Of a DNA stretch of 60,554 nucleotides, positions 28,736 to 45,104 are shown in pieces. Under the pieces are notes generated by a model. The model ran no database searches, had not been told where the DNA came from, and saw only the letters and a list, made by a program, of their open reading frames with translations. This DNA comes from Candidatus Woesebacteria bacterium. Its GTDB lineage: Bacteria; Patescibacteriota; Microgenomatia; UBA12405. The stretch spans positions 12,343-72,896 of the forward strand of contig DAOTMI010000002.1 of NCBI GenBank assembly GCA_035450165.1. The letters run 5' to 3'. A program made the position numbers and the translations under genes. Position 1 is the first letter of the stretch, and each line of letters begins with the position of its first letter.

Positions 28736-28737
28736 CA

Positions 28738-29754
28738 ATGATCCCCAAAATAAAAATCGGTTTCGTTAGTTCACCTTTAAATAATCAAAATAAAGTTCGC
28801 GGCGTCGGCTATTACACCAAAAAACTTTACGAAAATTTATCCAAAATAAAAACCTTAGAAGTTAATTTAATTAAAAATTGGAATTTAAAAATTGAAAATT
28901 ATGACCTTATCCATTATCCTTTTTTTGATCCTTTTAATTTAACCCTTAAAATTTTTAAACAGCCAACTGTAGTTACGGTTCATGATCTTATTCCTCTTCA
29001 ATTTAAAAAACATTTCCCCGCCGGTTTTAAGGGCAATTTAAAATGGCTGATTCAACTTTATCATCTTCGTCGAGCAGCGGCCATCATCACTGTTTCTCAA
29101 TATTCAAAAAAAATTATTCATCAAATCACTCACATACCTCTCAATAAAATCTTCGTCACTTATCTAGCGGCTGATTCTACTTTTAAACCGATTAATAACA
29201 AGTCTTATCTTCAGGCTATTAAAGCCAAATATCATTTGCCTGATAAATTTGTCTTATTTGTTGGTGATATTAATTGGAATAAAAATATTCCTAGTTTAGT
29301 AAAAATTTGTCAACATTTAAATTATCCTTTGGTCATTGCTGGTTCAGCTGCCGTCCAAAAAAACGTTCCGATTCATCCTTGGACTAAAGATTTACTTTGG
29401 CTCCAACAGCAAAAATACCCTCTTAAATTAGGCTTCGTTCCCGAAACCGAATTACCAGCTTTATTTAATTTGGCCACCATTTATTGCCAACCATCTTATG
29501 CTGAGGGCTTTGGTTTGCCGCCGCTACAAGCGATGGCTTGTGGTTGTCCGGTAATCTGCCGAATGGCTACCAGTTTACCCGAAGTAGTTGGTTCGGCTGC
29601 TTTGCCTTTTTCTATCGATAGTTTTCAAAAATTTTGGCAGGAAAAAAAAATTAGAGAAAAATATATTAAACTTGGACTAGACCAGGCTAAAAATTTTTCT
29701 TGGGAAAAAACAGCCCGGGCGACTATGGAAGTTTATGTCAAAATTAACTCCTAA
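28738..29754 (+). CDS. GT4 glycosyltransferase
   Basis: Motif [31 protein letters not shown] prefer the ATG at 28738 over the GTG at 28726. Confidence 0.7.
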
Positions 29755-30490
29755 TCATTTTCTATCCTTAATTGTCCCGGTTTATAAACAGGAAAAGACC
29801 ATAAAAAAAGATATTATACGACTACTTAAAACTCTCGATCAAATCCGCTATCCCTCCGAACTAATCGCCGTCGTTGACGGTATTCTGGTCGACACTTCTT
29901 ATTACATTCTTAAAAAAATAAAAAACCCTAAACTTAAGGTAATCGCGATTAAACGCAATCAAGGCAAGGGTTACGCCATCCGCAAGGGGATGGCTAAGGC
30001 AAAAGGGGATTATATCGCCTTTATTGATGCCGGCATGGAAATTGATCCTAATGGCATTTCCATGATTTTAGAACATATGGAATGGTATAACGCCGATATT
30101 ATTGTTGGCTCAAAACGTCATCCCGCTTCAATTATACAATATCCATTAGATAGGAAAATTATTAGCTTCTGCGCCCAGATTTATGCTCGTCTTTTTCTGG
30201 GCCTAAAAATTACCGACACTCAGGCTGGTTTAAAAATTTTCAAACGCAGAGTTTTGGAAAAAATCTTGCCAAAATTACTAGTAAAACAATACGCTTTTGA
30301 TCTGGAAATTCTAGCAGTTGCTAATCGTCTTGGTTTTAAACGAATTTATGAAGCTCCAATCAAACTTAACTATAGCTTTACTAGTTTAACCCACGCTAAT
30401 AGTTTAAACACCATTTACAAAACCCTAATCGACTCCTTGGCTGTTTTCTACCGCTTAAAAATCCTTCATTACTATGACAAAAAAAATTGA
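29735..30490 (+). CDS. GT2 polyprenyl-phosphate glycosyltransferase-like (DPM1/GtrB-like)
   Basis: Motifs LSLIVPVYKQEKTI, NQGKGYAIRKG, FIDAGMEIDP and DTQAGLKIF. Confidence 0.7.
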   Translation: MSKLTPNHFLSLIVPVYKQEKTIKKDIIRLLKTLDQIRYPSELIAVVDGILVDTSYYILKKIKNPKLKVIAIKRNQGKGYAIRKGMAKAKGDYIAFIDAGMEIDPNGISMILEHMEWYNADIIVGSKRHPASIIQYPLDRKIISFCAQIYARLFLGLKITDTQAGLKIFKRRVLEKILPKLLVKQYAFDLEILAVANRLGFKRIYEAPIKLNYSFTSLTHANSLNTIYKTLIDSLAVFYRLKILHYYDKKN

Positions 30491-31433
30491 TTTTTCGGTC
30501 ATTATTCCAGTCCGAGCTCCCAATAGCTACCTGAAGGAAACTTTAGCTCATTTAAAACAACAAATTTATAAACAATTTGAAGTCTTAGTTATTACCGACA
30601 ATGTTTCTAAAACTCCTAATCCAGCCGCCAAAAGAAATCTCGGCGCTAAAATGGCCAAGGGAAAATATCTTGCTTTCCTTGATGATGATTCATATCCTGA
30701 TCGTTTCTGGTTAAAAAATGCCAAAAAACAATTAGAAAAAAAATCGATTATTGCTGCCGTTGGTGGTCCTTGTCTAACCCCTCCTAACGATAATCCTTTT
30801 CAACAGGCTTCCGGTCTTGTCTGGAGTAGTTTTATGGGCAGCGGTGGGGCCGGTACTTACCGCAATCAAATTGCTCCCAGTCGTTATGTTGACGACTATC
30901 CTTCAGTTAATCTAATTGTTAAAAAAGAAGATTTTGATCAAATTGGTGGTTTTGATCTTACCCATTGGCCCGGCGAAGACACTCTCCTCTGTCTCAACCT
31001 TACTAAAAAACTCAAGAAAAAAATTCTTTATCACCCATCAATTCGGGTTTTTCATCACCGTCGACCGGTTTTTAAACAACATCTTCAACAAATCAGCCGT
31101 TATGCCTGTCACCGCGGTTATTTTGCTAAAAAATACCCTCAAACCAGCGCCCGGATTGGTTATTTTGCCCCAAGTATTTTTCTAATTTATCTTGTCACTT
31201 TGCCTCTCACCAAAGTCTTCTTTCCTCTTTATATTTATTTCTTTCTTCTCGGCCTTACTTTTATAAATTTCCTCACTGAAAATAACGGATTAATCTCACT
31301 CCTGGCAACAATAGCCATCCCTGCTACTCATCTAAATTATGGTTTCTTTTTTCTAAAAGGCTACTGCCAAAAAACTCTCGGCTTTATTCCCCATCCAATC
31401 GATGCTTCAACGGGCCGCTACCTTGGCGGTTGA
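30474..31433 (+). CDS. GT2 glycosyltransferase with C-terminal transmembrane helices
   Basis: Motifs FSVIIPVRAPNSYL and AFLDDDSYP, with a hydrophobic C-terminus (IFLIYLVTLPL...FFLLGLTFINF). Confidence 0.65.
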   Translation: MTKKIDFSVIIPVRAPNSYLKETLAHLKQQIYKQFEVLVITDNVSKTPNPAAKRNLGAKMAKGKYLAFLDDDSYPDRFWLKNAKKQLEKKSIIAAVGGPCLTPPNDNPFQQASGLVWSSFMGSGGAGTYRNQIAPSRYVDDYPSVNLIVKKEDFDQIGGFDLTHWPGEDTLLCLNLTKKLKKKILYHPSIRVFHHRRPVFKQHLQQISRYACHRGYFAKKYPQTSARIGYFAPSIFLIYLVTLPLTKVFFPLYIYFFLLGLTFINFLTENNGLISLLATIAIPATHLNYGFFFLKGYCQKTLGFIPHPIDASTGRYLGG

Positions 31434-31449
31434 TATCAGAAACCTTACT

Positions 31450-31878
31450 TTAACATCCTAAAAAATCAGCCGCGAGATAAACATTACCCTCTTTATCCAG
31501 TTCAAATTTACAATTTGACCTTTCAAAAATACAAGCCAGAGTTGCCTTATTACCTACGACCGATAATTTAATTTTCCCGGCTGTTTCTTTCACTTGTCTT
31601 TTTTTAACTAATTCTTCAATAGTATCTGAAGATGGGGTAATAATCTTTTTGGGTAAAAACAGAATTTTTTGGCCGTCCTGCTTCAATCGACTATAACTGA
31701 CTCCAGCTCGATTAATAACCGGCTGTAGCCGCCAGGAATCAAGCATCGATTGATCGTTCATTACTATCCTAACTGCTACCGGTTCATCCAGTTGACTTAA
31801 TTCAACTAAATGACTCGTTACCACCCCCTTTTCAGAAACCAAACGAGTATGAATCCACCTTATTTCTCTTTCTGCCAT
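31450..31878 (-). CDS. Hypothetical protein of 142 aa with no recognisable motif
   Basis: A reverse-strand ORF starting MAEREIRWIHTRL. A strong promoter occupies 31889..31917, which argues against the longer ORF start at 31917. Confidence 0.45.
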   Translation of the reverse strand: MAEREIRWIHTRLVSEKGVVTSHLVELSQLDEPVAVRIVMNDQSMLDSWRLQPVINRAGVSYSRLKQDGQKILFLPKKIITPSSDTIEELVKKRQVKETAGKIKLSVVGNKATLACIFERSNCKFELDKEGNVYLAADFLGC

Positions 31879-31888
31879 ATATTTTATA

Positions 31889-31917
31889 ATTATAACATAT
31901 TTAAACTTAATTATCAA
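31889..31917 (-). promoter_or_regulatory. Near-consensus sigma70 promoter with an extended -10
   Basis: On the minus strand: TTGATA (31912..31917), a 17-nt spacer, TGtTATAAT (31889..31897), then 10 nt to the ATG at 31878. Confidence 0.6.
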
Positions 31918-31969: not shown

Positions 31970-33346
31970 ATGACTGCTGTTGCTATTTCTTATCCGCCGC
32001 TGGAATCAACTAAAGGCCAACCCTTCTTGTCCCAAAACCGTCAATTTCAATGGACCAAAACCAATGATGTTATTTTTCCAGTTATTCCGGCTTCGATGGC
32101 AACTTTGTTAAAATCAAAAGGTTATCAAGTCTATTGGGACGACGCTATTAGTGAAAATATTTCCTATCAAACTTGGCTGAATAGACTCATTCAAAGATCA
32201 CCCGATTTTGTCTTTATGGAAAGCAAAACACCGGTTATTAAAAAGCATTGGCAAATTATCAAAGATGTTAAAAAAAAACTGCCCAAAACCAAGGTAATTT
32301 TAATGGGAGATCATGTTACCGCTCTGCCCAATGAATCTTACCAAAACTCCCCGGTTGATAAAGTTCTTATCGGCGGTAATTATGATTTTTTAGCTTTAGA
32401 ATATCTCACCGGCCAAAAAATAAAACCTGACCTAGAAACCCTCCCTTTAATTGACCGGCAATTATGCCAGTGGCAAAATTATGCTTATCGTAACACTAAT
32501 TTTAAATGCAAACCGGGGGCTTACACGATGTTCGGCCGCGATTGTTGGTGGGGAAGATGCACCTTTTGTTCTTGGGCAGCCCTTTTTCCCGGCAATCATT
32601 ACCAAGTAGTTTCACCATTAAAGGCAATCGAAGAAATTCAATTACTTCAACACCTTGGAGTAAAAGAGGTCTTTGATGATTCAGGCACTTTTCCAGTGGG
32701 GGAGTGGTTAGAGCAATTCTGCCGGTTAATGATTAAGTCCGGCTTAAACAAAAAAATTCAATTGGGAGCTAATATGCGTTTTGGCGCTTTAAGTCAGACT
32801 GAATTTAATTTAATGAAAAAGGCTGGATTCCGCTTTCTCCTTTTCGGTCTGGAATCGGCCAATCAAACAACTCTAAATAAAATCAATAAAAATATTAAAG
32901 TTGATAATGTTATACCCACTTTAACTATGGCTCAAAAAGCCGGAATTAGCAGCCATATCACTATTATGGTTGGTTACCCTTGGGAAAATAAAAAAGATTT
33001 GAATAAAACCCTAGCTTTTTGTCGTAGCATTTTTCGCCAGGGATTGGTCGCCAGTATGCAAGCCACTATTATTGTTCCTTATCCCGGGACACCGCTCTTT
33101 AATTACTGCCGGAAAAATAATCTGCTAACCACCAGTAATTGGAACAAATATGACATGGGTCAGCCGGTTATCAAAACTAAAGTCTCTGCCGATTACCTTA
33201 AACAGTCGGTCCGAAATTTATTCAAGGGAATTATTACCCCCCGATTTATCTTTAACCAAATTACTTCTTTAAAATCATGGGCTGATTTTCAGCACTTACT
33301 TTTTTACACTATTAAATATTTCCAAAAACTAAATGATTTCCGTTAG
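31970..33346 (+). CDS. B12-binding-domain radical SAM protein (class B-like) with a non-canonical Cys spacing
   Basis: The N-terminal block VFMESKTPVIKKHW...VILMGDHVTALPNE...VLIGGNYDF is B12-binding-domain-like. The cluster motif is C-WWGR-C-TF-C at 32543..32569. Confidence 0.7.
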   Translation: MTAVAISYPPLESTKGQPFLSQNRQFQWTKTNDVIFPVIPASMATLLKSKGYQVYWDDAISENISYQTWLNRLIQRSPDFVFMESKTPVIKKHWQIIKDVKKKLPKTKVILMGDHVTALPNESYQNSPVDKVLIGGNYDFLALEYLTGQKIKPDLETLPLIDRQLCQWQNYAYRNTNFKCKPGAYTMFGRDCWWGRCTFCSWAALFPGNHYQVVSPLKAIEEIQLLQHLGVKEVFDDSGTFPVGEWLEQFCRLMIKSGLNKKIQLGANMRFGALSQTEFNLMKKAGFRFLLFGLESANQTTLNKINKNIKVDNVIPTLTMAQKAGISSHITIMVGYPWENKKDLNKTLAFCRSIFRQGLVASMQATIIVPYPGTPLFNYCRKNNLLTTSNWNKYDMGQPVIKTKVSADYLKQSVRNLFKGIITPRFIFNQITSLKSWADFQHLLFYTIKYFQKLNDFR

Positions 33347-34337
33347 CTTTATCATTCCCACTCTCAACGCCGGCAGGGTTTTGGGAAAATGTCTGGCTTC
33401 GATTAAAAAACAAAGAACAAAATATCATTATGAAATTATTATCATCGATGGCGGCAGTGACGATAAGACCCTTAAAATAGCCAAAAAAAACCAAGCTAAA
33501 ATTATCTCCAATCATCTCAAGACGGCTGAAGCCGGCAAGGCCGCCGGGGTCAAAATCGCCCGGGGAAAATACTTAGCCTTCATTGACTCTGATAATATTC
33601 TTCCTAGTCCCAATTGGCTTAACCAAATGCTTCAGCCTTTTTCCGAAAAAGAAATCATCGGCAGTGAACCGATAAAATTTACTTATCGTAAAAACGCTGG
33701 TTTAATCGAAAGATATAGCGCTCTCATCGGTGCTAATGATCCTTATGCCCTAATTACCGGTGTCTATGATCGCTTCAGTTACCTTACCCAAAAATGGACT
33801 GGCCTAAATCTGTCGACAACCGATAAAAGAAAATATTTGAAAATAAAATTGGAAAAAAATAAACTCCTGCCAACTATTGGGGCTAACGGGACTATTTTCC
33901 GCCGGCAACTTTTCCAAAACTTCCGGTCGGATTATTTATTCGACATTGATTTTTTAACATCTCAATTAAAACATCGACATTACCTTTATTTTGCCAAAGT
34001 CAAAACCGGTATTATCCATACTTATTGTGAAAATTCAATTAAAAAGTTTATCCGCAAACAAAACCGCCGAGTAGTTGATTATTTTACCTATCGGCGTCAA
34101 CGCCACTTTAATTGGGATCAAACTAATAAATGGGGAACTATCAAATTTGTTTTCTATACCTTAACTCTTCTTCCTATGATTTATCACCTAATTTTAGGTT
34201 ATAGCCGTCAACCTGACCGGGCATGGTTTTTTCACCCCCTAGCTTGTTTAATTACCCTTTACTGCTACACTATCAATTACCTTCGGTATCAACTTGGTTT
34301 AATTAAACCTTTAAACAGAAATCAATGGCGGCAGTAA
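33333..34337 (+). CDS. GT2 glycosyltransferase with a hydrophobic C-terminal region
   Basis: Motifs VSFIIPTLNAGRVL, IIIIDGGSDDKT and AFIDSDNILP, plus the C-terminal helix FVFYTLTLLPMIYHLILG. Confidence 0.7.
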   Translation: MISVSFIIPTLNAGRVLGKCLASIKKQRTKYHYEIIIIDGGSDDKTLKIAKKNQAKIISNHLKTAEAGKAAGVKIARGKYLAFIDSDNILPSPNWLNQMLQPFSEKEIIGSEPIKFTYRKNAGLIERYSALIGANDPYALITGVYDRFSYLTQKWTGLNLSTTDKRKYLKIKLEKNKLLPTIGANGTIFRRQLFQNFRSDYLFDIDFLTSQLKHRHYLYFAKVKTGIIHTYCENSIKKFIRKQNRRVVDYFTYRRQRHFNWDQTNKWGTIKFVFYTLTLLPMIYHLILGYSRQPDRAWFFHPLACLITLYCYTINYLRYQLGLIKPLNRNQWRQ

Positions 34338-35416
34338 AAGCAATTCTAATTCTTAGCCCCTTTTTTCCACCCAACATCGGCGGGGTAGAAACCCATTTAG
34401 CTGACCTTTGCCTAGAATTAGCTCGAAAAAACTATAAAGTTTATGTCCATACTTATTCGCCCTTAACTACCTCGGTTAAATATCAAAAATATGAAAAATC
34501 AAAAAATTTAACTATTTATCGCTATCCATGGTTGGGCAAGAATCTTTTCCACCGGCTGGAAAAATATCCACTGCTCGACTTTTTATATTTAACCCCTTAT
34601 CTTTTTCTCCGCACTTTTTTCTGGATGTTACTCAATAGCCACAAAATTAACATTATTCATTCCCAAGGCTTTAACGCCGCTTTTGCTGGCTACTGTCTTT
34701 CCCTTATTTTCCACAAAAAACATCTCATCAGTACCCACGCCGTTTATGACAACATTTCCACTTCCACCCCTTTGCGTTTCATCCTCAATCATTCCGACCA
34801 TGTTCTTTGCCTCTCCCACGCTTCCCAAAAACAACTCATCCAATGGGGGATTGATCCCAAAGTCATCGATATTTACAAGTATTGGATCAACTTAAAAATC
34901 TTTCAGCCGTCTTCCCCAAAATCAAAAAAATTTTCCGTTCTTTTCGTTGGCCGCCTGATTGAGAAAAAAGGCATTAAAGTCATTGTTGCCGCTGCCCAAA
35001 AACTTCCCCAAATCCAATTTAACTTTATTGGTACCGGCCCTTTATCTGATTATCTTTCATCTATCAAACAAAAAAATATCAAGTTTATCGGTAAAATCAG
35101 CAACATCAACACTCCCAAATATTATTCTCAAAATCACATTTTTTGTGCCCCATCTCTCTATGAAGAAGGCTACGGTCGGGTAGCCATGGAAGCAGTTGCT
35201 TGCGGCACGCCGGTAATTGCCAGTAACCGCGGCGGTTTACCCGAAGCTTTGGACAATTCAGTCGCTATTTTAATCAAACCTACTCCAACCAATCTCGTTA
35301 AGGCCATTAAAAAAATTCGGAAAAAATATTCGGTATATCAAAAAAACTGCCGTCCTTACGCTCTAAAAAATTACTCAAATAAAAATTTAACTCTAATTAC
35401 TCGCTTCTACAAATAA
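34325..35416 (+). CDS. GT4 glycosyltransferase
   Basis: Motifs PPNIGGVETH and YEEGYGRVAMEAVACGTPVIASNRGGLPEAL. Confidence 0.75.
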   Translation: MAAVKAILILSPFFPPNIGGVETHLADLCLELARKNYKVYVHTYSPLTTSVKYQKYEKSKNLTIYRYPWLGKNLFHRLEKYPLLDFLYLTPYLFLRTFFWMLLNSHKINIIHSQGFNAAFAGYCLSLIFHKKHLISTHAVYDNISTSTPLRFILNHSDHVLCLSHASQKQLIQWGIDPKVIDIYKYWINLKIFQPSSPKSKKFSVLFVGRLIEKKGIKVIVAAAQKLPQIQFNFIGTGPLSDYLSSIKQKNIKFIGKISNINTPKYYSQNHIFCAPSLYEEGYGRVAMEAVACGTPVIASNRGGLPEALDNSVAILIKPTPTNLVKAIKKIRKKYSVYQKNCRPYALKNYSNKNLTLITRFYK

Positions 35417-35968
35417 ACTATTCCCTTTGTATTGGGGTAAATCGATCTTCTTAATATTTGTAAACTTGATTGTTTGAAAACCAGCTTCCCGTAATTTTTC
35501 TTCCAATTCCTCTCTATCAAATAACCATTGATGTCCCCGAATAAAATTTCTAAATCTATAGGGCTTTTCCTTATCATAACCATAGACAAATTCATTAAAC
35601 CGCTTGGCACCAGCATAATTATTAATAATATATTTAATATCCGGCACCACTATCCGCAAAACACCATTATTTTTTAAAACTCGACGGCATTCCAATAAAA
35701 CTTTTCTGATTACTGCCGGTTCAAAATGTTCCAAAACATGGGAACAATAAATAAAATCAACCGAATGGTCTTTTAATGGCAGGGGTTTCCTAATATCCAC
35801 CAAATGAAATTTCGGCCATTTGACCAAATAACTTTTATCTATCAAACCGAAAGATATCGCAACTTTTAATAACCCCATTTTGTTTAACAGTGGTAATAAA
35901 CCCCAATCGTAATTAAGCCACCCTTTAGTTTTTCCTGAAGGACCACAGCCTAAATTAACTTTCATCAT
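35393..35968 (-). CDS. Class I SAM-dependent methyltransferase (Methyltransf_11-like)
   Basis: Motifs VNLGCGP, SVDFIYCSHVLEHF and LKNNGVLRIVVPD. Confidence 0.65.
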   Translation of the reverse strand: MMKVNLGCGPSGKTKGWLNYDWGLLPLLNKMGLLKVAISFGLIDKSYLVKWPKFHLVDIRKPLPLKDHSVDFIYCSHVLEHFEPAVIRKVLLECRRVLKNNGVLRIVVPDIKYIINNYAGAKRFNEFVYGYDKEKPYRFRNFIRGHQWLFDREELEEKLREAGFQTIKFTNIKKIDLPQYKGNSLFVEASN

Positions 35969-35970
35969 AG

Positions 35971-35976
35971 TACAAT
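35971..35976 (+). promoter_or_regulatory. -10 box for the GT4 operon at 35983
   Basis: TACAAT, followed by 6 nt and then the GTG at 35983. Confidence 0.35.
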
Positions 35977-35982
35977 AGAGCA

Positions 35983-37095
35983 GTGAAACAAATTTTATTT
36001 ATAGCTAATAATAACATCGGTCGAGGCCAAAGTGGAGGCGACACTATTTTCCTTAATTTTGCTAAATATTGGCCTGGGGTAACTATTATCGGCTCGGCGG
36101 AAACCAGAAATTTAATGGGGCGTTATCATCTCCGAAATCAATTTATTCAAACCGATAAAGCTTCTCATTTACCTCTTTTTTTTCATCAAATCAGAAGAAC
36201 AATTTTGGGTATATTAAAAATTAAAAATTTAAAATTTTTTAACTATGTTTACAGTGTTTCAGATTTTTACCCCGATCTCTTGCCGGCTATATGGTATAAA
36301 TTAAAACATCCCCAAACTAAACTTATTTGCGGTTACTACCTCCTAGCCCCTAACCCCTTTAGTCATTCATCGCCCTACCGACAAACTGGTCAATTTTTAA
36401 AAGGGCTTTTTTATTGGTTATCCCAACGTTTAAGTTTATTTCTAGTCAATCGTTACGCCGATATCGTTTTAATTACCTCAGAGCCCGATCGGAAATATTT
36501 TCCCAATAAAAAGGTCATAGTAGTGCAAGGAGGAGTTGACTTACCAGCCAAAATTAAATCCACCAAAATTTACGACGCTGTTTTTATAGGCCGACTGCAC
36601 CCCCAAAAGGGAATTCTGGAATTAATTGATATTTGGCAAAAAGTTGTCGGACAAAGACCAAATGCCAAGCTGGCTGTTATCGGTGATGGTTCTTTGGAAA
36701 GAAATTTAAAATTTAAAATTCAAAAATTAAAATTAAAAAACAATATCACCCTGTTTGGATTTAAAACCGGCAAGGAAAAATATCAAATCTTCAGTCAAAG
36801 TAAAATTGTGGTTCATCCGGCTATTTATGACAGTGGGGGAATGGCGCCGGCAGAAGCTATGTCGCTTGGTTTACCGGGAGTTGCTTTTGATCTAGAAGCT
36901 CTAAAAAGTTATTACCCTCAGGGAATGTTAAAAACTAAATGTTTTGACCAGAACTTATTCGCCCAAAATATTTTAAAACTACTCCAAGATAAGCGACTTT
37001 ACCGTCGCTTGTCCCAAGAAGCTCTAACTTTAATTAATCGTTATTGGCTTTGGCCTCAACGAGCCCAAAAAATCTATGAAAATCTTATTTATTGA
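35983..37095 (+). CDS. GT4 glycosyltransferase
   Basis: GTG start. Motifs FIGRLHPQKG and YDSGGMAPAEAMSLGLPGVAFDL. Confidence 0.7.
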   Translation: MKQILFIANNNIGRGQSGGDTIFLNFAKYWPGVTIIGSAETRNLMGRYHLRNQFIQTDKASHLPLFFHQIRRTILGILKIKNLKFFNYVYSVSDFYPDLLPAIWYKLKHPQTKLICGYYLLAPNPFSHSSPYRQTGQFLKGLFYWLSQRLSLFLVNRYADIVLITSEPDRKYFPNKKVIVVQGGVDLPAKIKSTKIYDAVFIGRLHPQKGILELIDIWQKVVGQRPNAKLAVIGDGSLERNLKFKIQKLKLKNNITLFGFKTGKEKYQIFSQSKIVVHPAIYDSGGMAPAEAMSLGLPGVAFDLEALKSYYPQGMLKTKCFDQNLFAQNILKLLQDKRLYRRLSQEALTLINRYWLWPQRAQKIYENLIY

Positions 37096-38191
37096 ACCTT
37101 GTTTTAAAAATTTCGGCGGTTATTTCCGATCGATTAATATCTGCCGTTCTTTAGCAAAAAAAAATATCAAAGTTACTTTGTTAATTTCCAGCGATCAGAA
37201 ATTTTCGCCAATCATTAAGAAAACTATTATTAACCGAAATTTGACTCAATATGAATTGCCCCGTTGGGAAATTAATTTTTACCTTAATGGTCGGATTTTG
37301 AGAGGTTTAATAGCCACGGTTTGGGGCCTCATCGGCCGCTTTGATATTATCCACGCGGCTGTCCCTGCCCAATTGGAAAGTAATATTCCCGCTCTTATTT
37401 TACGATTAAGTGGTAAAAAGGTCGTTTTTGATTGGGATGATCTTTTGGAAAATGAGATTTCAATCTCCCCCTTCTTACGCTCATACTCCCGCTTTTGTGA
37501 AAAGTTTTTTCCTAAAATAATCAAAAACTATGTAGTGGTTAGCGATCTTCTTTTTAATTTAGCCCAGTGCCGTGGTGCTACTAAAATTATTAAGATTATT
37601 AATGGTGTTGACGTTCATCAATTTAAACTTTATCCTCAAAAGAAAAATTATAATTTCCTTACCTTTGGCAATACTTACTCAAGGGATCGAACCAGGTTAT
37701 TACTTTTATTGTTCGAAAAAATTTGGCGGCAAGAACCGCGGGCTCAATTAATTTGGAATTTAGATCCTCTCAAACTTGTTCAACAACAAAAACTCAAAAT
37801 TAATCCCAAAATAATAAACAATATCCATAGCGTCGGTAATATTCCCCAGAAAAACCTCGGCAAATATATTGCTCAATCACAGGCAATTCTTTTTATGATG
37901 GGTAATTTGGATAGCGAGCGGGCTTGTTTTCCTATTAGAATCGGCAGTTATTTAAGCGGTGAAGCAATTATCATTTTAAATGATACCAACACCGAAGTGG
38001 TCAAAACTCTCAAACATTATCAATGTGCCATTATCGATAAAGATCTTGATATTTTGGCTTCAAAATCAGTCGAACTACTCCATAACCCTAAAATTAGGCA
38101 AAAATTACAACCAAAAATTAATCGTGCCAAAAGTGAACTTTCGTGGGATAATCTAATCACCCCCCTGATTAATTTTTACAAAACTTTATGA
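37076..38191 (+). CDS. GT-B-fold glycosyltransferase-like protein (divergent GT4)
   Basis: The N-terminus [36 protein letters not shown] is typical of a GT-B N-domain. The C-terminal catalytic motif is degenerate. Confidence 0.5.
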
Positions 38192-39255
38192 AATCGGGAT
38201 ATGTCTTAATTACCGGATCGGGCGGTTTAATCGGTTCGGAAGCGGCTAAATTTTTCGCCGATAAAGGCTTTAAAATTATTGGCATTGATAATAATCTGCG
38301 ACAGTACTTTTTTGGGCCGGAAGCTTCAACTCAATGGAACCAAACAGAACTCCAGAAAAAACTAAAAAATAATTATCTTTACTTTAATATCGATATCAGA
38401 GATGAAAAATCGATCGAAAAAATATTTAAGAAATATCGATTTGATTTAATTATCCATACAGCAGCCCAACCATCACATGATTGGGCCGCCAAAGAACCCC
38501 TGACCGACTTTACTGTCAATGCTCTAGGTACCTTAATTTTACTTGAAAATTACCGAAAATATTGCCCCAAGGCTGTTTTCATCTATACTTCAACTAATAA
38601 GGTTTATGGCGATACCCCCAATAAACTACCTTTAATTGAACTAAAAACCAGATATGAAATCGACCCAAAACATCCATTTGCCCAAAACGGCATTGATGAG
38701 TCAATGAGTATTGATAACTCAACTCATAGCCTCTTTGGTGTCTCGAAGGCGTCAGCTGATTTAATGGTCCAAGAATATGGTAAATATTTTGGTTTACCGA
38801 CAACCGTTTTTCGCGGCGGCTGCCTAACCGGTCCGAGTCATTCGGCCACCAAACTCCATGGGTTTCTTGCTTATTTAATCAAATGTATTGCTGAAGGGAA
38901 AAAATACACTATCTTCGGTTATAAAGGCAAACAAGTTCGCGACAATATCCACTCTTTTGATTTAGTCAACGCTTTTTATCAAGTCTATAAAAAACCACGA
39001 TGCGGAGAGGTTTACAATATTGGCGGCTCCCGCCATTCCCATATCTCCATGATGGAGGCAATTTTTAAAGTGGAAAGTGCTCTGGGTAAGTTTGCTCTTA
39101 TTGAATACATCGATACCCCAAGAATCGGCGATCATATTTGGTATGTTTCTGATGTTTCTAAGTTTAAAAAACATTATCCCAATTGGAACTATCAATACAA
39201 CATTGACGATATTATAAAGGAAATTTGTGAACTCGGTCATTTTCGTCAACAATGA
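38188..39255 (+). CDS. Extended-SDR NAD-dependent epimerase/dehydratase (CDP-paratose 2-epimerase/Tyv-like)
   Basis: Motifs [35 protein letters not shown] and GKQVRDNIH. Confidence 0.7.
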
Positions 39256-40256
39256 AATATAAAAATATTTTAATTACTGGCGGCGCCGGTTTTGTCGGCT
39301 CTAATTTAGCTATCAGTCTCAAACAAAAATACCCCCAAACTAAAATCACCTGTCTGGATAATTTGTCCCGCCGCGGCTCAGAACTAAATTTAACCCGACT
39401 TAAACAAAACAAAATTGTTTTTAATTATGGTGACATTCGTCAACCTGAAGATCTTAATTTTTTAACCGCTGATTTAATAATTGATTGTTCAGCCGAACCT
39501 TCGGTTTTAGCCGGCATCACCAACCCTTATTTTCTTATTAATAATAATCTAATTGGGACTATTAATTGTCTTGAATTGGCTAGAATCAGAAAGAGCGATT
39601 TTATCTTTTTAAGCAGTAGCCGAGTTTACTCTATTAAAGAATTAAACCGGCAGAAATTTAAAGCTGTGGCCGAAAATTTTCCTCTTGGCCGGGTTCGTTC
39701 ACTCTATGGCACCACTAAATTGGCTGCCGAATTAATTATCCAAGAATATGCTGACTCTTTTAATTTAAAAGCGATCATCAATCGCTGTGGTTGTCTGGCT
39801 GGTCCCTGGCAATTCGGCAAAGTTGACCAGGGCGTCCTTACTCTCTGGCTGGCCGCTCATTATTTTAAAAAAGAGTTAGCTTATATCGGCTTCGGCGGCC
39901 GGGGAAAACAGGTCCGTGATTTCCTCCATATTCAAGATCTTTTTGAAATTTTAGATATTCAAATTAATCATTTTTACCAATATTCTGGAGAAATTTATAA
40001 TATTGGCGGGGGAATAAAAAATAGTACTTCTCTGGTAAACCTTACCAAAATTTGCCAAAAAATCACTGGTAACAAAATAAAGATTAAATCCATCAAAAAA
40101 AATCGTCCCAATGACGTTATTTCCTATATTACCGACATTTCTAAAATTAAAAAACAGGCCCATTGGTCCCCACAAATCAGTCTGGAAAAAACAATTGAGG
40201 ATACTTACAATTGGATCAAAGAAAATGAATCAGTTTTAAAAAACATTCTATGTTAG
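39252..40256 (+). CDS. Extended-SDR NAD-dependent epimerase/dehydratase (CDP-paratose 2-epimerase/Tyv-like)
   Basis: Motifs [44 protein letters not shown] and GKQVRDFLH. Confidence 0.7.
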
Positions 40257-41584
40257 ACATTCTTCTCGTTGAACCGCCCAGCCGCCGAGCTTTTCATTAT
40301 CGCCCGCCAATTGCCCTGCTTTATTTAGCCGGATTCTTGCAAAAATTTAAAATTAAAGTCAAAATTTGGGATTCAAATAAAAAACTCGATTTTCAACTAA
40401 TTAAAAAAATGAATCCCAAATATATAGGCTTAACTTGCTACACCCCGGAATACGAAGAAGTGGTTCAATTGGCTAAAGAATTTAAACAACTTTTACCTCA
40501 AACCAAAATTGTTGTCGGCGGAACTCACCCCACCTTATATCCCCAAGAATTTCCCCGAAAATATTTTGACAAGGTTATCCAAGGCGATGGCGAAGAAAAA
40601 CTCTACCATTACTTAACTAAACGAAGAGGCAGAATGGCCCCGACAAATTTTCTGCCGGCTTATAATCTGATTGACATGTCCTACTACACCCACGCTAACC
40701 CTTATGCTATTCGAGGCTGCTTCCTTCGCCCAGCTTATCTTTTAGCCAGCCGTGGCTGTCCTTCAGAATGTACTTTTTGTGTAGCCAAAAAATTACGTCA
40801 ATTCACCTGTTTTCGAACTCGTCCTGCCGAGGAATTAATTAAGGAGATTAAATTACTCAGACGTAAATACTTAATCGACAGTTTTTATTTCATTGACGAT
40901 CTTTTCACTCTTAACAGAAATAATGTTTTAAAGTTTTGTCAATTATTTCAGTCGGCCAAATTAAATCTTCTCTGGGGTTGTGAAGCTAAAGTTTCAACTT
41001 TAGATGAGGAATTAATCAAAACAATGGCGGCAGCGGGTTGTATTCAGATTGATTTTGGAGTTGAACGTGGTTCAAATCAAGCCTTAAAACAATGTAAAAA
41101 AAATATTACTTTAACTCAAATCAAAAATACTTTTTATCTCTGTCATAAATACCATATTAGAACCTTCGCTAATTTTTTAGTTAATCTTCCCGGGGAAACT
41201 AAAAAGGATTTAGATGACATTCTTAAACTGGCTCGGGAAATTAAACCAGACATTGTTTCTTTTAATATTTTTACTCCTTATCCTGGCACAGAAATCTACG
41301 ACTCGGCTAAATTCAAATTCACCCCCGAAGAATACAAACTTCTCTATACTGGTTCGAATTACCTTAAAAAATATCCCCAAAAATTTAAATTTGCCCGGCA
41401 TAATATTGACCTTAGTCAATGGGCTAGGATCAATAATAAAAAATTCAACCGGTTGGGGCCAATAATCAAATTTCATCTCAGCCGCCGCTATCTCAAAACC
41501 CTTCTTTATTCCCAAAACAAACTAGATTATTTCCTCCAATTAGGCAATTTGCTCACTGAGTTTTACCGGCAGAAATTTGCTTAA
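40250..41584 (+). CDS. B12-binding-domain radical SAM protein (class B-like)
   Basis: The blocks IGLTCYTPEYEEV...IVVGGTHPTLYP...VIQGDGE form the B12-binding-like domain. A canonical C-PSE-C-TF-C motif lies at 40757..40780. Confidence 0.75.
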   Translation: MLDILLVEPPSRRAFHYRPPIALLYLAGFLQKFKIKVKIWDSNKKLDFQLIKKMNPKYIGLTCYTPEYEEVVQLAKEFKQLLPQTKIVVGGTHPTLYPQEFPRKYFDKVIQGDGEEKLYHYLTKRRGRMAPTNFLPAYNLIDMSYYTHANPYAIRGCFLRPAYLLASRGCPSECTFCVAKKLRQFTCFRTRPAEELIKEIKLLRRKYLIDSFYFIDDLFTLNRNNVLKFCQLFQSAKLNLLWGCEAKVSTLDEELIKTMAAAGCIQIDFGVERGSNQALKQCKKNITLTQIKNTFYLCHKYHIRTFANFLVNLPGETKKDLDDILKLAREIKPDIVSFNIFTPYPGTEIYDSAKFKFTPEEYKLLYTGSNYLKKYPQKFKFARHNIDLSQWARINNKKFNRLGPIIKFHLSRRYLKTLLYSQNKLDYFLQLGNLLTEFYRQKFA

Positions 41585-43274
41585 GAGTATTAACTGCTGG
41601 AGTAAAATTTGGATTTAACTGGAGAGCATAATTCAAATAGTCTTCGGCTTCTTTTAATTTTCCCCCCTGGGCCAAAACTACTCCCATCACATAATAGGCC
41701 TGGGGATTATTGGGCTGAGACTCGATCAGTTTATTAGCATAAGCCAAAGCACCATTCAAATCCCCCTGATACAAAGCCACTTGAGTGAGAGAAATATATG
41801 ATTGGTATAAACCGGGGTGAAATTTCAAGGCCATCTCGTATCCTTGCCGAGCTAAATCATATCTTTTAATTTTAAAAAAAATGTTGGCCTGATTATGGTA
41901 AGCATCGGCATAATTATTTTTAACTGCATATGACTGGCCAAAACCTTTAATAGCATTGTCATACTGGCCTAACTTATCATAATCGTCGCCAATATTATTC
42001 CAAGCATTATGACTATTCCAAGAATATTGAACCGTTCTTACCCACAAATTATGATTGGTTTGCCAATCAATATTTCGCAAATAAACTCTGATACCATAAA
42101 AGACTAACAATAGAGACAGGATAAGATAACTTAAATTTTTAATCCTTAAATCAATCGCCTCAAGTAATAAAGCTAAGAAAAGGCAAAATCCCAGTGATCC
42201 TAAAAACATATACCTTTCGGCTACCAACCAGCTGACCTTAACCGGTGCCATTGACGGAGCTAAAGCCAGTAAAATGAACATTAAAGCAAACCAATATCTT
42301 TTATCCTTCTTGCCCCAATACCACATGATTGCCAAAAACAACAGTAAAATTAGCCAATTCAACCAAGGTTCGAAAACATACATTGTATGATACAAAGTCA
42401 AATCAATCGGCAACCAAAGCAACTGCAAATACTTGGCTATACCGGTAGGGTACTGAAAGAACGGGTTATAAAAAATACTCTCCGAAAAATTATAACCCGA
42501 ATTGACTACGGCAACCCGAGAGCGAATATAAGGAATTGATAAAATAAAAAACGCAATACTGAAAGTAATAATATAGGGGATGAATTTACTTAATTTGTCC
42601 CTAACTTTCCCCCAGCCAAAATAAAAAACCACTAAAACCATCAAGAATATTAAAGAAAAAGGCCGAGGCTTATCGATCAAAAAACCCAAAATAAAAAATA
42701 AAATTACCCAGCCCAAAAATTTATATTTTCCTGTTTCCAAATAATAAATAAAAGCCATTAAACCAAGTAAGATATAAATGGCCAAAATAATATAAATCCT
42801 ACCCGAAATCCACGAAACCGCCTCAACATGAATTGGGTGAAAAGCAAAAAGAAGAGTAGTACTGATAGCCAACTTTTTTCCAAACATTCGGTAAATAAAA
42901 GCGAAGGCCAAAATAATAAATATCAAATATAAAAACAAACTATTAAGGTGGAAACCTAAGGGATTTTTAATTCCAAAAATAACTGCTAAAAGGTAAGTGC
43001 CAATTCGCATCGTGTTAAAACCAGAAAACATTACCCGGGGATTAAGAACATCCGGATTTTGGGTAATTGAGGCATAATCATCAGAAACAAAATCTCCATG
43101 AAGAGCATTTAGATAAATCAAAACTACCCCCATCCCGATTATCAACAAAAATGTCCAATTTTTTCTGATAATCTCCCAAAAACCTTCTTGAACCGCTAGG
43201 TTTTCCCGCTTGTCATCAATTGCTTCCCTTTCTCTTTCTAAAGCCCTTAATCGACGGTATTTTTTTTGAGACAT
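41553..43274 (-). CDS. GT-C-like polytopic membrane protein with C-terminal TPR repeats (TMTC-like architecture)
   Basis: Contains the loop motif HGDFVSDDYASITQNP and about 11 hydrophobic helices, followed by TPR-like repeats (AWNNIGDDYDKLGQYDNAIKGF..., AYHNQANIFFKIKRYDLA..., AYYVMGVVLAQGGKLKEAEDYL). Confidence 0.65.
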   Translation of the reverse strand: MSQKKYRRLRALEREREAIDDKRENLAVQEGFWEIIRKNWTFLLIIGMGVVLIYLNALHGDFVSDDYASITQNPDVLNPRVMFSGFNTMRIGTYLLAVIFGIKNPLGFHLNSLFLYLIFIILAFAFIYRMFGKKLAISTTLLFAFHPIHVEAVSWISGRIYIILAIYILLGLMAFIYYLETGKYKFLGWVILFFILGFLIDKPRPFSLIFLMVLVVFYFGWGKVRDKLSKFIPYIITFSIAFFILSIPYIRSRVAVVNSGYNFSESIFYNPFFQYPTGIAKYLQLLWLPIDLTLYHTMYVFEPWLNWLILLLFLAIMWYWGKKDKRYWFALMFILLALAPSMAPVKVSWLVAERYMFLGSLGFCLFLALLLEAIDLRIKNLSYLILSLLLVFYGIRVYLRNIDWQTNHNLWVRTVQYSWNSHNAWNNIGDDYDKLGQYDNAIKGFGQSYAVKNNYADAYHNQANIFFKIKRYDLARQGYEMALKFHPGLYQSYISLTQVALYQGDLNGALAYANKLIESQPNNPQAYYVMGVVLAQGGKLKEAEDYLNYALQLNPNFTPAVNTLKQISAGKTQ

Positions 43275-43276
43275 AA

Positions 43277-44242
43277 TTAACTCCTTAAAATTCGCTTAAA
43301 AAGAAGCGAAAGCTTTTTAACATCATGTCTGAGCCGTAAATTCTTTCTATCAACCACCACGATATCATTAACTTGAGAACCAGAGGAATAAAGATACGAA
43401 TGTTCATAGGCATAATTACGCTTAACTTCCGTTAATAGTTTTGGATTAATTTTAGTGAAATCAGGTTCAATAATGTCATCAAAACTATTTTTTCCTAAAT
43501 AATTCGAGAAGATCTTATAATAAGTGGCGGCATCTAATTTAGCCGTTTCGTTAGCTACTGAAGTTAAATTAGCAATTAAAATTTTTCTGGCCTGGCTGGA
43601 ACGATAGGCAGTAATCATTCCTTGGGGTAAAAAATTTACTAAGATTGAACCGTAAATACTTCCAGGACCAACAATAATGATCTCGGCCATTTTTAGAGTT
43701 TGTTTAGCTTCTTCACTAGCCTCTACCATTGGTTCCAGCCAAATTTTTTTAACTCTGTCTTCCGACATCCGATATTCATCAAAATAATGCTCACCAACAT
43801 ATTGCTTGCCGCTCTCCGTCTGCCAGCAAACATCGGCTGGTTCCAAAGAAACAGGAATTACTTCACCTTTTAATTCAGCTCCAGTTAATTCGGAAAATAA
43901 CCGGTCAACATTAGCCAAATTACCCGTTTTCTCCGTCATAAACTGGAAAAAAATATCGCCAAAGTTTCGCCCTCGACCGTCCCGATACCGCAACATTTCC
44001 TCCCAAATAGCCTTCTGCCGGCCATTTTTCCAGAGAGAAATTAAAGACCGCCAATAATCCGAAAAGGCTAATAATTTTCCTCTTTCATCTGTCTTCATTC
44101 GACCAGAATAGCCGCCACTGTCAAAAGTAGTTACTATCGAATGAATATCATTAAAACCAACCTCAACTAAAGCCTTATTAACGACCGGCATACCCGACCC
44201 ACCGCCAATTGTACACACTTTCACTTGTCGTTTTATAGCCAT
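43277..44242 (-). CDS. YvcK/CofD-family protein (UPF0052)
   Basis: Contains VCTIGGGSGMPVV, VTTFDSGGYSGR, a GPGS-type block (IIVGPGSIYGS) and a C-terminal region. Confidence 0.65.
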   Translation of the reverse strand: MAIKRQVKVCTIGGGSGMPVVNKALVEVGFNDIHSIVTTFDSGGYSGRMKTDERGKLLAFSDYWRSLISLWKNGRQKAIWEEMLRYRDGRGRNFGDIFFQFMTEKTGNLANVDRLFSELTGAELKGEVIPVSLEPADVCWQTESGKQYVGEHYFDEYRMSEDRVKKIWLEPMVEASEEAKQTLKMAEIIIVGPGSIYGSILVNFLPQGMITAYRSSQARKILIANLTSVANETAKLDAATYYKIFSNYLGKNSFDDIIEPDFTKINPKLLTEVKRNYAYEHSYLYSSGSQVNDIVVVDRKNLRLRHDVKKLSLLFKRILRS

Positions 44243-44301: not shown

Positions 44302-45102
44302 ATGTTGGAAATTGTCAAGGAAATTAAGGCTATTCTCCGCCAGCATGAACTTCTTAAACAAATGATTAACCGGGAAATTAAGGCCCGTTACAAACAATCT
44401 ATCTTAGGATATTTTTGGGTTATTCTTAACCCTCTTTTCCAAATGCTGGTGATGAGTTTTGCTTTTTCTATTATTATGCGCGTTCCTACCAAAGCCGCTA
44501 ATAATATTCCTTACTCAATTTTTCTCTATGTGGCTCTTTTACCATGGAATTTATTTTCTAATTCGCTAACTTCTGCTTGTTCTGCCTTGGTCAATAATGC
44601 CTCACTAATCACCAAGATTTATTTTCCCCGGACTATTTTAGTCATAGCCACGATTATTGCTAAAATTGTCGATTTTCTCTTTGCTTCAATTATTCTCATT
44701 ATTTTCATGATTATTTACCATCTTTCGATCAATATTAATATTGTTTGGATAATCCCAATCTTCTTAATCCAACAAATTTTCACCCTTGGTTTGGCCTTAA
44801 TTGTCTCAGCCGCTAATCTCCTTTATCGGGACATTCAATATCTCCTTGGTCTTATTCTCCTTCTTTGGATGTACCTTACTCCGGTTATTTATCCAGTCGA
44901 TCTTGTTCCGGAAAAATTTCGTTTTATTTTTCAACTTAATCCAATGAGTGTTATTATTAACGCTTATCGCCAAACCATTCTCGGCGGGGGATCGCCGAAT
45001 TACCAAAGTCTGCTTCTCGCCTTTTTAGTTTCTCTGATTGTCCTTTTCCTAGGTTTTGTTTATTTTAAATGGCGAGAAAAAACCTTTGCTGATAACATTT
45101 AA
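44302..45102 (+). CDS. ABC-2 type polysaccharide/teichoic-acid export permease (Wzm/TagG-like)
   Basis: The N-terminus LLKQMINREIKARYKQSILGYFWVILNPLFQM is the canonical start of this family. The protein is 266 aa with 6 helices. Confidence 0.8.
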   Translation: MLEIVKEIKAILRQHELLKQMINREIKARYKQSILGYFWVILNPLFQMLVMSFAFSIIMRVPTKAANNIPYSIFLYVALLPWNLFSNSLTSACSALVNNASLITKIYFPRTILVIATIIAKIVDFLFASIILIIFMIIYHLSININIVWIIPIFLIQQIFTLGLALIVSAANLLYRDIQYLLGLILLLWMYLTPVIYPVDLVPEKFRFIFQLNPMSVIINAYRQTILGGGSPNYQSLLLAFLVSLIVLFLGFVYFKWREKTFADNI

Positions 45103-45104
45103 CC

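Follow-up and report, generated by a model that had tools for sequence, protein, structure and literature searches.

Glycosyltransferase-linked radical SAM genes in a conserved envelope glycan locus of Candidatus Woesebacteria

Positions 31970-41584 of a 60,554-nt stretch of DNA from Candidatus Woesebacteria (hereafter the window; all coordinates are positions in it) carry nine genes, of which the first and the last encode radical S-adenosylmethionine (SAM) proteins, rSAM1 and rSAM2, and the others encode glycosyltransferases, a methyltransferase and two short-chain dehydrogenases/reductases (SDRs). The question raised by this locus is whether the two rSAMs bracket a single unit that builds a modified sugar, as was supposed in a preliminary description of the DNA, which also suspected an organism of the Candidate Phyla Radiation (CPR) type, as Candidatus Woesebacteria, the name under which near-identical proteins are deposited, indeed is. 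The bracketed unit did not hold up, because the partner gene of rSAM1, GT2u1 (30474), lies outside this range, rSAM2 belongs to a separate module, and the SDR genes belong to an inserted cassette. The nine-gene region is the variable stretch of a conserved locus plus its two edges, and a glycan role of both rSAMs is well supported. With moderate confidence, the region is predicted to be the tailoring stretch of a conserved Wzm/Wzt-exported glycopolymer locus in Microgenomates, built from glycosyltransferase-rSAM pairs and not as one bracketed pathway.

Glycosyltransferase-rSAM pairs and the conserved locus

All nine open reading frames (ORFs) were reproduced by the ORF list at the positions and strands first given for them, and their domain assignments were upheld by Pfam, the wording "GT4-like" being apt for the gene at 37076, where the Glyco_transf_4 match was below threshold. 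The nine genes are listed here together with GT2u1 and a small ORF.

30474-31433, + strand: GT2u1, a GT2-type glycosyltransferase, directly upstream of rSAM1 across loci
31450-31917, - strand: small ORF with no Pfam or NCBIfam match
31970-33346, + strand: rSAM1, Pfam Radical_SAM with a Rossmann/B12-like N-terminal domain
33333-34337, + strand: GT2a, a GT2-type glycosyltransferase (Pfam)
34325-35416, + strand: GT4a, a GT4-type glycosyltransferase (Pfam)
35393-35968, - strand: MTm, a class I SAM methyltransferase (Pfam Methyltransf_11, N-terminal LGCGPSG motif)
35983-37095, + strand: GT4b, a GT4-type glycosyltransferase (Pfam Glycos_transf_1)
37076-38191, + strand: GT4-like protein, first gene of the cassette (Glyco_transf_4, 24.9 versus a threshold of 28.5)
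38188-39255, + strand: SDR1, a Tyv-like extended SDR (Pfam Epimerase)
39252-40256, + strand: SDR2, a Tyv-like extended SDR (Pfam Epimerase), its start overlapping the SDR1 stop by 4 nt
40250-41584, + strand: rSAM2, Pfam Radical_SAM and B12-binding

In the rSAM1-centred comparison, the window proteins were compared by BLAST with the ORFs of 88 related loci (individual loci are denoted by L numbers). GT2u1 was found immediately upstream of rSAM1 in all 71 loci with enough flanking sequence (52/52 low-GC and 19/19 high-GC loci), the two genes mostly abutting or overlapping, and the pairing includes Desulfovibrionales, Thermodesulfobacteriota and Acidobacteriota. Homologs of rSAM1 numbered more than 5,400 at E<=1e-10 (47-70% identical, mean column identity 65%), and in a scan with one genome per species rSAM1 was encoded in at least 533 genomes, mostly of Shapirobacteria and other Patescibacteria and also of the three groups just named. 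The best NCBIfam match of GT2u1 was MftF (90 bits, cut-off 280). In Patescibacteria and most other lineages, GT2u1 is itself preceded by a small GT2 that resembles polyprenyl-phosphate-sugar synthases.

GT2u1 and rSAM1, which abut in other loci, are parted in the window by a gap of 536 bp that is occupied by the small ORF (142-155 aa; the shorter length is counted from the ATG at 31878). Right upstream of this ORF lies the region's best promoter-like site (31917-31889, TTGATA-17-TATAAT with TG); overall, 43 promoter-like sites were found versus 38.5±6.6 in shuffled sequence, and 19 terminator-like sites versus 11.2±3.6, an excess over shuffled sequence not being clear. The only homolog of the small ORF that was found (27% identity) holds the equivalent place in L090, and the ORF may be a recent insertion.

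The number of rSAM genes in such loci can be considerably larger. In the Patescibacteria locus L169 (1-22103), six rSAM genes are interleaved with glycosyltransferases between GT2u1 and the gene for a tetratricopeptide repeat (TPR) protein, of which three are SPASM-type, two are B12-type and one is an rSAM1 fused to a class I methyltransferase. The methyltransferase domain of this fusion (P0206) was considered as an MTm ortholog and rejected, the likeness being weak (28 bits).

The second rSAM belongs to another module. Homologs of rSAM2 numbered 811, and orthologs with at least 40% identity were found in few rSAM1 loci. A module of GT4 or GT1 (Glycos_transf_1), rSAM2 and a class I methyltransferase of ~270-290 aa is present in L001-L005 and L171; in L001-L005 the gene next to rSAM2 is GT4b, which abuts it, and in L006 and L171 a Glycos_transf_1 gene lies upstream of rSAM2. 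Partial forms also occur, since L007 (Firestonebacteria) has the methyltransferase after rSAM2 and no GT1 directly upstream, L170 has the methyltransferase after rSAM2 and a GH130-like gene, not GT1, upstream, and L006 (Omnitrophota) has no methyltransferase downstream. Outside Patescibacteria, a recurring module of rSAM2, a methyltransferase (~290 aa) and a B12-type rSAM (~525 aa) was found in L007 (10001-13980), L170 (8001-13419) and L171 (8001-13403), and continues in L170 and L171 with a further B12-type rSAM (479 aa) and a large protein without family match; carbamoyltransferase genes lie near the modules of L170 and L171, and SDR genes near those of L007 and L171. Relatives of rSAM2 thus stand among glycosyltransferase or nucleotide-sugar genes in Patescibacteria, Omnitrophota, Firestonebacteria and two further contigs.

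The closest rSAM2 loci without the cassette are L001-L003 (69% identity), where GT4b directly abuts rSAM2. In the window, 3.2 kb comprising the GT4-like gene, SDR1 and SDR2 part GT4b from rSAM2, and the downstream methyltransferase is missing, a layout common to L089 and L090. The rSAM2 of the window falls in a five-member clade of short proteins (443-446 aa) that lack a stretch of 21 residues within the Rossmann domain as well as a linker of 29 residues, both of which are present in 25/29 other members. The preliminary description would have been weakened had the rSAMs grouped with non-glycan families, for example lipid or cofactor enzymes, and had conserved synteny elsewhere; what was found instead was a constant glycosyltransferase neighbour for rSAM1 and a setting of glycan genes for rSAM2.

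These pairs lie in a glycan island that extends over the 60 kb of the window and encodes ~15 GT2, ~9 GT4 and ~10 GT-C (PMT_2/ArnT-like) proteins by Pfam and NCBIfam, together with a Wzm/Wzt exporter, a UDP-glucose 6-dehydrogenase, a true GalE, a YvcK/CofD-like protein and the TPR protein. Pfam scans took ORFs of at least 120 aa, a scope that applies to all the Pfam results for the window given here. The genes that flank the nine-gene region are as follows.

21785-27929, + strand: four tandem GT-C (PMT_2/ArnT-like) membrane glycosyltransferases (Pfam PTPS_related, PMT_2, PMT), start of the conserved block
27926-28735, + strand: GT2 of the conserved block (Pfam)
28726-29754, + strand: GT4 of the conserved block (Pfam)
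29735-30490, + strand: small GT2 of 251 aa (Pfam), the most conserved gene of the locus
41553-43274, - strand: TPR protein (Pfam), conserved downstream end of the locus
43277-44242, - strand: YvcK/CofD-like protein (YvcK model 143 bits, cut-off 196)
44302-45102, + strand: Wzm, ABC2_membrane (Pfam), TagG-like
45105-45833, + strand: Wzt, ABC_tran (Pfam), 242 aa, with TagH/Wzt-like NCBIfam matches
45837-47132, - strand: UDP-glucose 6-dehydrogenase (NDP-sugar dehydrogenase subfamily, 470 bits, cut-off 190)
47193-48164, - strand: true GalE (450 bits, cut-off 262)

In dozens of Patescibacteria loci the same order was observed, namely four GT-C genes, GT2, GT4, GT2, GT2u1, rSAM1, GT2a, a variable stretch, the TPR and YvcK-like genes on the opposite strand, Wzm and Wzt. 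In most low-GC loci the stretch before rSAM1 has orthologs of the four GT-C proteins (42-64% identity) in unchanged order, orthologs of the GT2 at 27926 and the GT4 at 28726 hold the equivalent position at 44-72% identity, and the small GT2 (29735) is 61-81% identical across Patescibacteria loci, with a small GT2 likewise placed in most non-CPR loci. The small GT2 of the window is weakly similar to the polyprenyl-phosphate sugar synthases PpgS, ArnC and AglJ, with NCBIfam scores far under cut-off. At the other end, the TPR and YvcK-like proteins (46-70% identity) keep their position, and Wzm/Wzt (63-77% identity) are placed alike in related loci.

Within the variable stretch, GT2a lies downstream of rSAM1 in 38/46 low-GC loci, GT4a has orthologs of 45-70% identity in related loci, and MTm, which in all related loci runs opposite to the genes around it, has orthologs of 38-54% identity in 13/36 low-GC loci. 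In the window MTm shares 24 nt with the end of the upstream GT4 gene, and 14 nt separate it from the beginning of the next GT4. Because the antisense orientation is kept, the MTm promoter must sit within neighbouring coding sequence.

UDP-glucose 6-dehydrogenase and GalE are the sole clear nucleotide-sugar supply genes in the window. The absence of RfbF, RfbG, RfbH and RfbS from the window, already remarked on, was borne out by Pfam; nucleotidyltransferases, DegT/RfbH-type enzymes and CDP-glucose dehydratases were not found among the window ORFs, nor were SDRs beyond SDR1, SDR2 and the true GalE, nor a match to priming phosphoglycosyltransferases (WecA/TagO or WbaP; PF00953, PF02397), whose gene could sit elsewhere in the genome. 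No tRNAs or Rfam elements were found in the window, and a cobalamin riboswitch was thus not detected.

The locus resembles the Wzm/Wzt O-antigen and TagGH teichoic acid systems, which likewise have an ABC-2 permease and ATPase, many cytoplasmic GT2 and GT4 enzymes and methyltransferases. It differs from them in that the window is without a WecA/WbaP-type priming enzyme and in its ~10 GT-C genes and rSAMs, neither of which belongs to those systems as described. Because Wzt is short (242 aa), it has no room for a carbohydrate-binding domain.

Further genes of the island include a Wzx-like flippase and a weak Wzy_C-like protein (8611-10083 and 54528-55952), present beside the Wzm/Wzt exporter (44302-45833), and a DUF559/restriction-endonuclease-like ORF of 142 aa among GT-C genes (2987-3415, + strand), in which only the C-terminal part of the domain was matched. 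Among the related loci, low-GC ones were also found in many third-party (TPA) assemblies titled "uncultured Gammaproteobacteria bacterium" (L009, L016-L018, L020, L026, L028, L030 and others); these loci have less than 45% G+C and the full Patescibacteria gene order, and the Gammaproteobacteria titles are probably wrong.

Family, fold and cofactor of the two rSAMs

rSAM1 and rSAM2 are 28% identical and, in profile comparison, homologous over nearly their whole length, and the N-terminal domain of rSAM1 is homologous to that of rSAM2 (hhalign, 99.7%). Both had been labelled as B12-type rSAMs, a label that fits the protein at 40250 and is weakly backed for the one at 31970. rSAM2 scored 83 bits for Radical_SAM and 67 bits for B12-binding (gathering score 32.1), its N-terminal profile could be aligned with the cobalamin domains of OxsB, TokK and CysS, and its cluster motif is the canonical CxxxCxxC within an invariant RGCPSxCTFC; four extra Cys (C230, C244, C264 and C298) are invariant in the family. 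rSAM1 scored 58 bits for Radical_SAM and 23.7 bits for B12-binding, which is under the same gathering score, and its three invariant cluster Cys have a Cx4Cx2C spacing (CWWGxCxFC, 30/30 sequences, within an invariant RDCWWGxCxFC), which is non-canonical compared with the CxxxCxxC of class B. The Rossmann domain of rSAM1 also carries an invariant 17-residue insertion (FLSQNRQFQW...) after the first strand, and the rSAM1 profile gave no sequence match to solved cobalamin domains, its matches being confined to the radical SAM core of MgmA and AprD4. Judged from these features, cobalamin binding by rSAM1 is doubtful.

The rSAMs were also classified with TIGRFAM/NCBIfam, a check proposed in the preliminary description, and no family cut-off was reached; the same was true of all nine proteins and the curated NCBIfam cut-offs. 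The best match was HpnJ for rSAM1 (128 bits, cut-off 578) and ApyD for rSAM2 (141 bits, cut-off 750), with HpnJ as the second-best match of rSAM2 (HpnJ scores, 128-133 bits), and the AprD4 model NF033070 (cut-off 500) gave sub-cut-off scores of 100.5 bits for rSAM2 and 30.1 bits for rSAM1. Membership of the rSAMs in the HpnJ, BchE, HpnR, PhpK, ApyD, AprD4, MgmA, BzaD and ladderane rSAM families was rejected on such scores (ladderane rSAM, 71-83 bits versus a cut-off of 360), and a tetraether or ladderane lipid enzyme was rejected as well. The rSAMs would work in the manner of the sugar-modifying rSAMs of class B type (GenK, GenD1, MoeK5, AprD4 and HpnJ), yet they belong to no curated family tested.

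The tetraether-lipid synthase Tes was absent from the rSAM sequence matches and from the top 50 fold matches; Tes, an enzyme without a B12 domain, is the subject of the published work that connects rSAM lipid synthases with CPR groups. In the literature GenK, GenD1, MoeK5 and Fms7 are listed as known class B enzymes, and a literature search on radical SAM enzymes in CPR/Patescibacteria or in glycan loci found nothing on the present families. Public records name the proteins generically, as "B12-binding domain-containing radical SAM protein", "NAD-dependent epimerase/dehydratase", "CDP-paratose 2-epimerase" and "glycosyltransferase".

AlphaFold models were obtained with a predicted local distance difference test (pLDDT) score of 85 for rSAM1 and 86 for rSAM2 and a predicted template modelling (pTM) score of 0.87 for both. 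The top Foldseek match in the PDB, over the full length, was AprD4 for both (template modelling (TM) scores of 0.74/0.75 for rSAM1 and 0.71/0.70 for rSAM2), with 15-19% sequence identity in the structural alignments, and AprD4 was also the top PDB sequence match of rSAM2 (92 bits, profile 79 bits). The next fold matches, at TM 0.55-0.67, were the methylases MgmA, TsrM, TokK and CysS and another cobalamin-dependent rSAM, OxsB. Because AprD4 and true methylases both match, the fold is without power to tell the chemistries apart. Of the earlier proposal that the rSAMs C-methylate or otherwise modify a glycan residue by radical chemistry, the tie to glycans is retained by synteny, and the C-methylation is unproven, both models matching AprD4 best.

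The SDR cassette

Both SDRs had been called Tyv/RfbE-like, in agreement with CDP-tyvelose 2-epimerase being the best solved relative of SDR1 and SDR2 (9rl0, 141 and 136 bits; 1orr, 130 and 120 bits), although the margin of SDR2 over dTDP-glucose 4,6-dehydratase is small (136 versus 111 bits). Both align to Tyv/RfbE over the full length and have the GxxGxxG and STNKVYGD motifs in common with it, and they are 30% identical to each other. Ordinary UDP-hexose 4-epimerases with no link to the rSAMs, which would have spoken against the preliminary description, were not what was found, since SDR1 also lies beside rSAM1 elsewhere and both SDRs fail the GalE model (TIGR01179, 98.6 bits for SDR1 and 127.8 bits for SDR2, cut-off 262), on which score GalE membership was rejected.

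The likeness to Tyv has its limits, as the window is without CDP-hexose pathway genes and SDR1 has FxxxK, not YxxxK. In SDR1 a Phe (F185) replaces the catalytic Tyr (HSLFGVSK versus HSPYGCSK in Tyv), and a Phe at this position (FG[AV]SK) was found in 91/91 SDR1 relatives; SDR2 keeps YxxxK (YG[AT]TK) in 25/25 sequences. Tyv-type catalysis as such is therefore excluded for SDR1. The SDR1 family has its own invariant motifs, for example AAQPSHDW, and a literature search on Tyv-like SDRs with Phe for Tyr found nothing.

An SDR1-centred comparison was performed with eighty SDR1-anchored metagenome loci (62-84% identity; SDR1 orthologs overall, 58-84%). An SDR2 ortholog was found directly downstream of SDR1 in 20/65 SDR1 loci, a GalE-like SDR and a small GT2 come next in other SDR1 loci, and UDP-glucose dehydrogenase adjoins SDR1 in 5 loci. 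UDP-sugars are candidate SDR substrates, as UDP-glucose dehydrogenase is a neighbour in the window and in these 5 related loci. The cassette is present in L089 and L090, absent from L001-L003, and found in 1/36 Patescibacteria rSAM1 loci; orthologs of its GT4-like protein (37076) were found in L090 (70%), L036 (47%), L010 (44%) and L119 (42%). SDR1/SDR2 is a nucleotide-sugar module that is mobile between glycan loci.

SDR1 and rSAM1 also meet in several independent layouts, although such a link is rare among Patescibacteria (1/36 loci). The order rSAM1-GT2-SDR1 was observed in ten high-GC loci, including those of the cultured Fundidesulfovibrio agrisoli, F. soli and F. putealis, and the order rSAM1-GT2a-SDR1-SDR2 in L035, L100 and L112. 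An rSAM1-like gene (38-43% identity) lies beside SDR1 in L111, L118, L119, L126 and L127, abutting it in L119 (40%).

Proposed tailoring scheme and competing explanations

The synteny, the fold matches, the motifs and the gene families given above are observations, whereas the lipid carrier, the substrates and the reaction of each rSAM are inferred. In the core pair, GT2u1 would add a sugar to a cytoplasmic intermediate, probably linked to polyprenyl phosphate, and rSAM1 would then alter this sugar by 5'-deoxyadenosyl-radical chemistry, which could be either C-methylation or an AprD4-like dehydration or rearrangement. In the accessory pair, GT4b would add a later sugar that rSAM2 modifies, most likely by cobalamin-dependent C-methylation, given the genuine B12 domain of this enzyme; the class I methyltransferase usually encoded after it would have been lost here. 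The cassette of the GT4-like gene, SDR1 and SDR2 would have been inserted between the halves of the accessory pair, and would most likely serve to build one further unusual sugar from a nucleotide sugar and to attach it, with UDP-glucuronic acid (UDP-GlcA) as a candidate precursor. The modified intermediate would later be exported by Wzm/Wzt.

Two kinds of known systems offer a parallel. HpnI/HpnJ are a hopanoid GT2 and a B12-type rSAM that is proposed to rearrange the attached sugar, and the logic is shared, in that the sugar which a GT2 has attached to a lipid is reworked by the rSAM encoded beside it; they differ in that HpnJ scores far below its cut-off, GT2u1 has no HpnI match at E<=1e-5 and the window is without hopanoid genes. 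GenK, GenD1, Fms7 and MoeK5 are precedents for radical C-methylation of sugar carbons, the substrate of MoeK5 being a lipid-linked saccharide. Their domain architecture is alike, and they belong to actinomycete secondary-metabolite clusters, whereas the present rSAMs lie in a Wzm/Wzt glycopolymer locus of a CPR bacterium, each coupled to a glycosyltransferase.

Several points weigh against the proposed pairs and their export by Wzm/Wzt. No priming phosphoglycosyltransferase or nucleotidyltransferase is present in the window, so that the carrier and the donor sugars are guesses, and the likeness of the small GT2 to polyprenyl-phosphate sugar synthases comes from scores far below cut-off. The B12-domain evidence for rSAM1 is weak, and the models of both rSAMs match best a non-methylating enzyme. 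SDR1 is mostly without rSAM1, only 7/47 loci with at least 5 kb of flank carrying one. As close relatives contributed many of the loci, the counts overstate independent observations.

The unit first supposed, in which the nine genes would be one self-contained pathway and two cobalamin-dependent class B methylases would C-methylate a sugar prepared by the SDRs and transferred by the glycosyltransferases, is considered unlikely. It gains from the class-B architecture of both rSAMs (a Rossmann domain followed by the radical SAM domain), from the true B12 domain in rSAM2, from the linkage of SDR1 to rSAM1 in several lineages, and from the closest curated families, which include the methylases HpnR, PhpK and Sden_1168 and C-methyltransferases of ribosomally synthesized and post-translationally modified peptides (RiPPs); GenK, GenD1 and MoeK5 provide class B precedents with action on sugars. 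However, the unit is not conserved, with rSAM2 in few rSAM1 loci and the cassette in a single one of the Patescibacteria loci compared, and the constant partner of rSAM1 is left out of it. The B12 domain of rSAM1 is moreover sub-threshold, interrupted by the 17-residue insertion and unmatched among solved cobalamin domains, and no methylase family cut-off was reached by proteins whose best structural match, AprD4, does not methylate.

A role of one rSAM, or of both, as a cobalamin-independent 1,2-diol dehydratase like AprD4 with its partner AprD3 is rather improbable; the resulting ketone would then be reduced by SDR2, or by SDR1/SDR2, to a deoxy sugar. AprD4 (apramycin biosynthesis; PDB 6fd2; reductase AprD3) has, like the rSAMs here, a Rossmann-like N-terminal domain followed by the radical SAM core, and it is reported to be a cobalamin-independent radical SAM 1,2-diol dehydratase that has a sugar ring as its target, is paired with an NADPH reductase and groups among B12-type rSAM sequences without binding cobalamin. 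Its place at the top of the fold matches of both rSAMs and of the PDB sequence matches of rSAM2, as well as the recurrence of rSAM1 beside SDR genes, are in line with such a reaction, and in our estimation a cobalamin-free mechanism would suit reduced CPR genomes. AprD4, however, acts on a soluble pseudodisaccharide antibiotic, while the rSAMs here sit in a cell-envelope polymer locus; the domain of rSAM2 aligns to true cobalamin domains and rSAM1 has Cx4Cx2C. With a cut-off of 500, the AprD4 model gave 100 bits for rSAM2 and 30 bits for rSAM1, fewer than one in five residues were identical in the structural alignments, and the true methylases MgmA, TsrM, TokK and CysS follow close behind in the match lists. 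SDR1, the SDR most often beside rSAM1, is without the catalytic Tyr needed by a ketoreductase, and in most rSAM1 loci of Patescibacteria no SDR lies within 10 kb.

That the rSAMs modify a peptide or protein (RiPP-like or a glycosylated surface protein) or a lipid carrier, and merely share an operon with glycosyltransferases, is very unlikely, since the RiPP enzyme ApyD as best NCBIfam match of rSAM2, the listing of HpnJ, ladderane rSAM and BchE, the SPASM-type rSAMs typical of peptide modification in L169 and L170, and the ability of PMT_2-type GT-C enzymes to glycosylate proteins are set against scores 4- to 5-fold under the cut-offs for ApyD, HpnJ, ladderane rSAM and BchE, a window in which no precursor-peptide-like or leader-processing gene, protease or RiPP recognition element was seen (on which a RiPP reading was rejected), match lists without Tes, and a constant rSAM1 neighbour that is a glycosyltransferase.

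The preferred explanation remains that of glycosyltransferase-rSAM pairs in a Wzm/Wzt-exported glycopolymer locus. A broader proposal is made more tentatively: GT2u1 and rSAM1 could be a widespread, undescribed pair that places a radical-modified sugar (C-alkylated, deoxygenated or ring-rearranged) in the envelope polymers of Microgenomates and sulfate reducers, the CPR loci with up to six rSAM genes could reflect a general radical tailoring of glycans, and the Tyr-less SDR1 could be a new catalytic type that works with GT2u1-rSAM1.

To our knowledge, radical SAM sugar chemistry is known almost only from antibiotic pathways. Sugar-modifying rSAMs of class B type are known, and what is new here is the predicted rSAM tailoring inside a conserved envelope glycan locus of the ATP-binding cassette (ABC) transporter type, hard-wired to specific glycosyltransferases. 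Two large unnamed rSAM families are locked to glycosyltransferases in the main surface-polymer locus of a major CPR lineage, and the presence of the GT2-rSAM1-GT2-SDR1 operon in cultured Fundidesulfovibrio makes the question directly testable. If the explanation is true, these ultra-small, host-dependent bacteria would bear surface sugars of an undescribed kind, and the locus would bear on the dependence of CPR bacteria on scavenged cobalamin.

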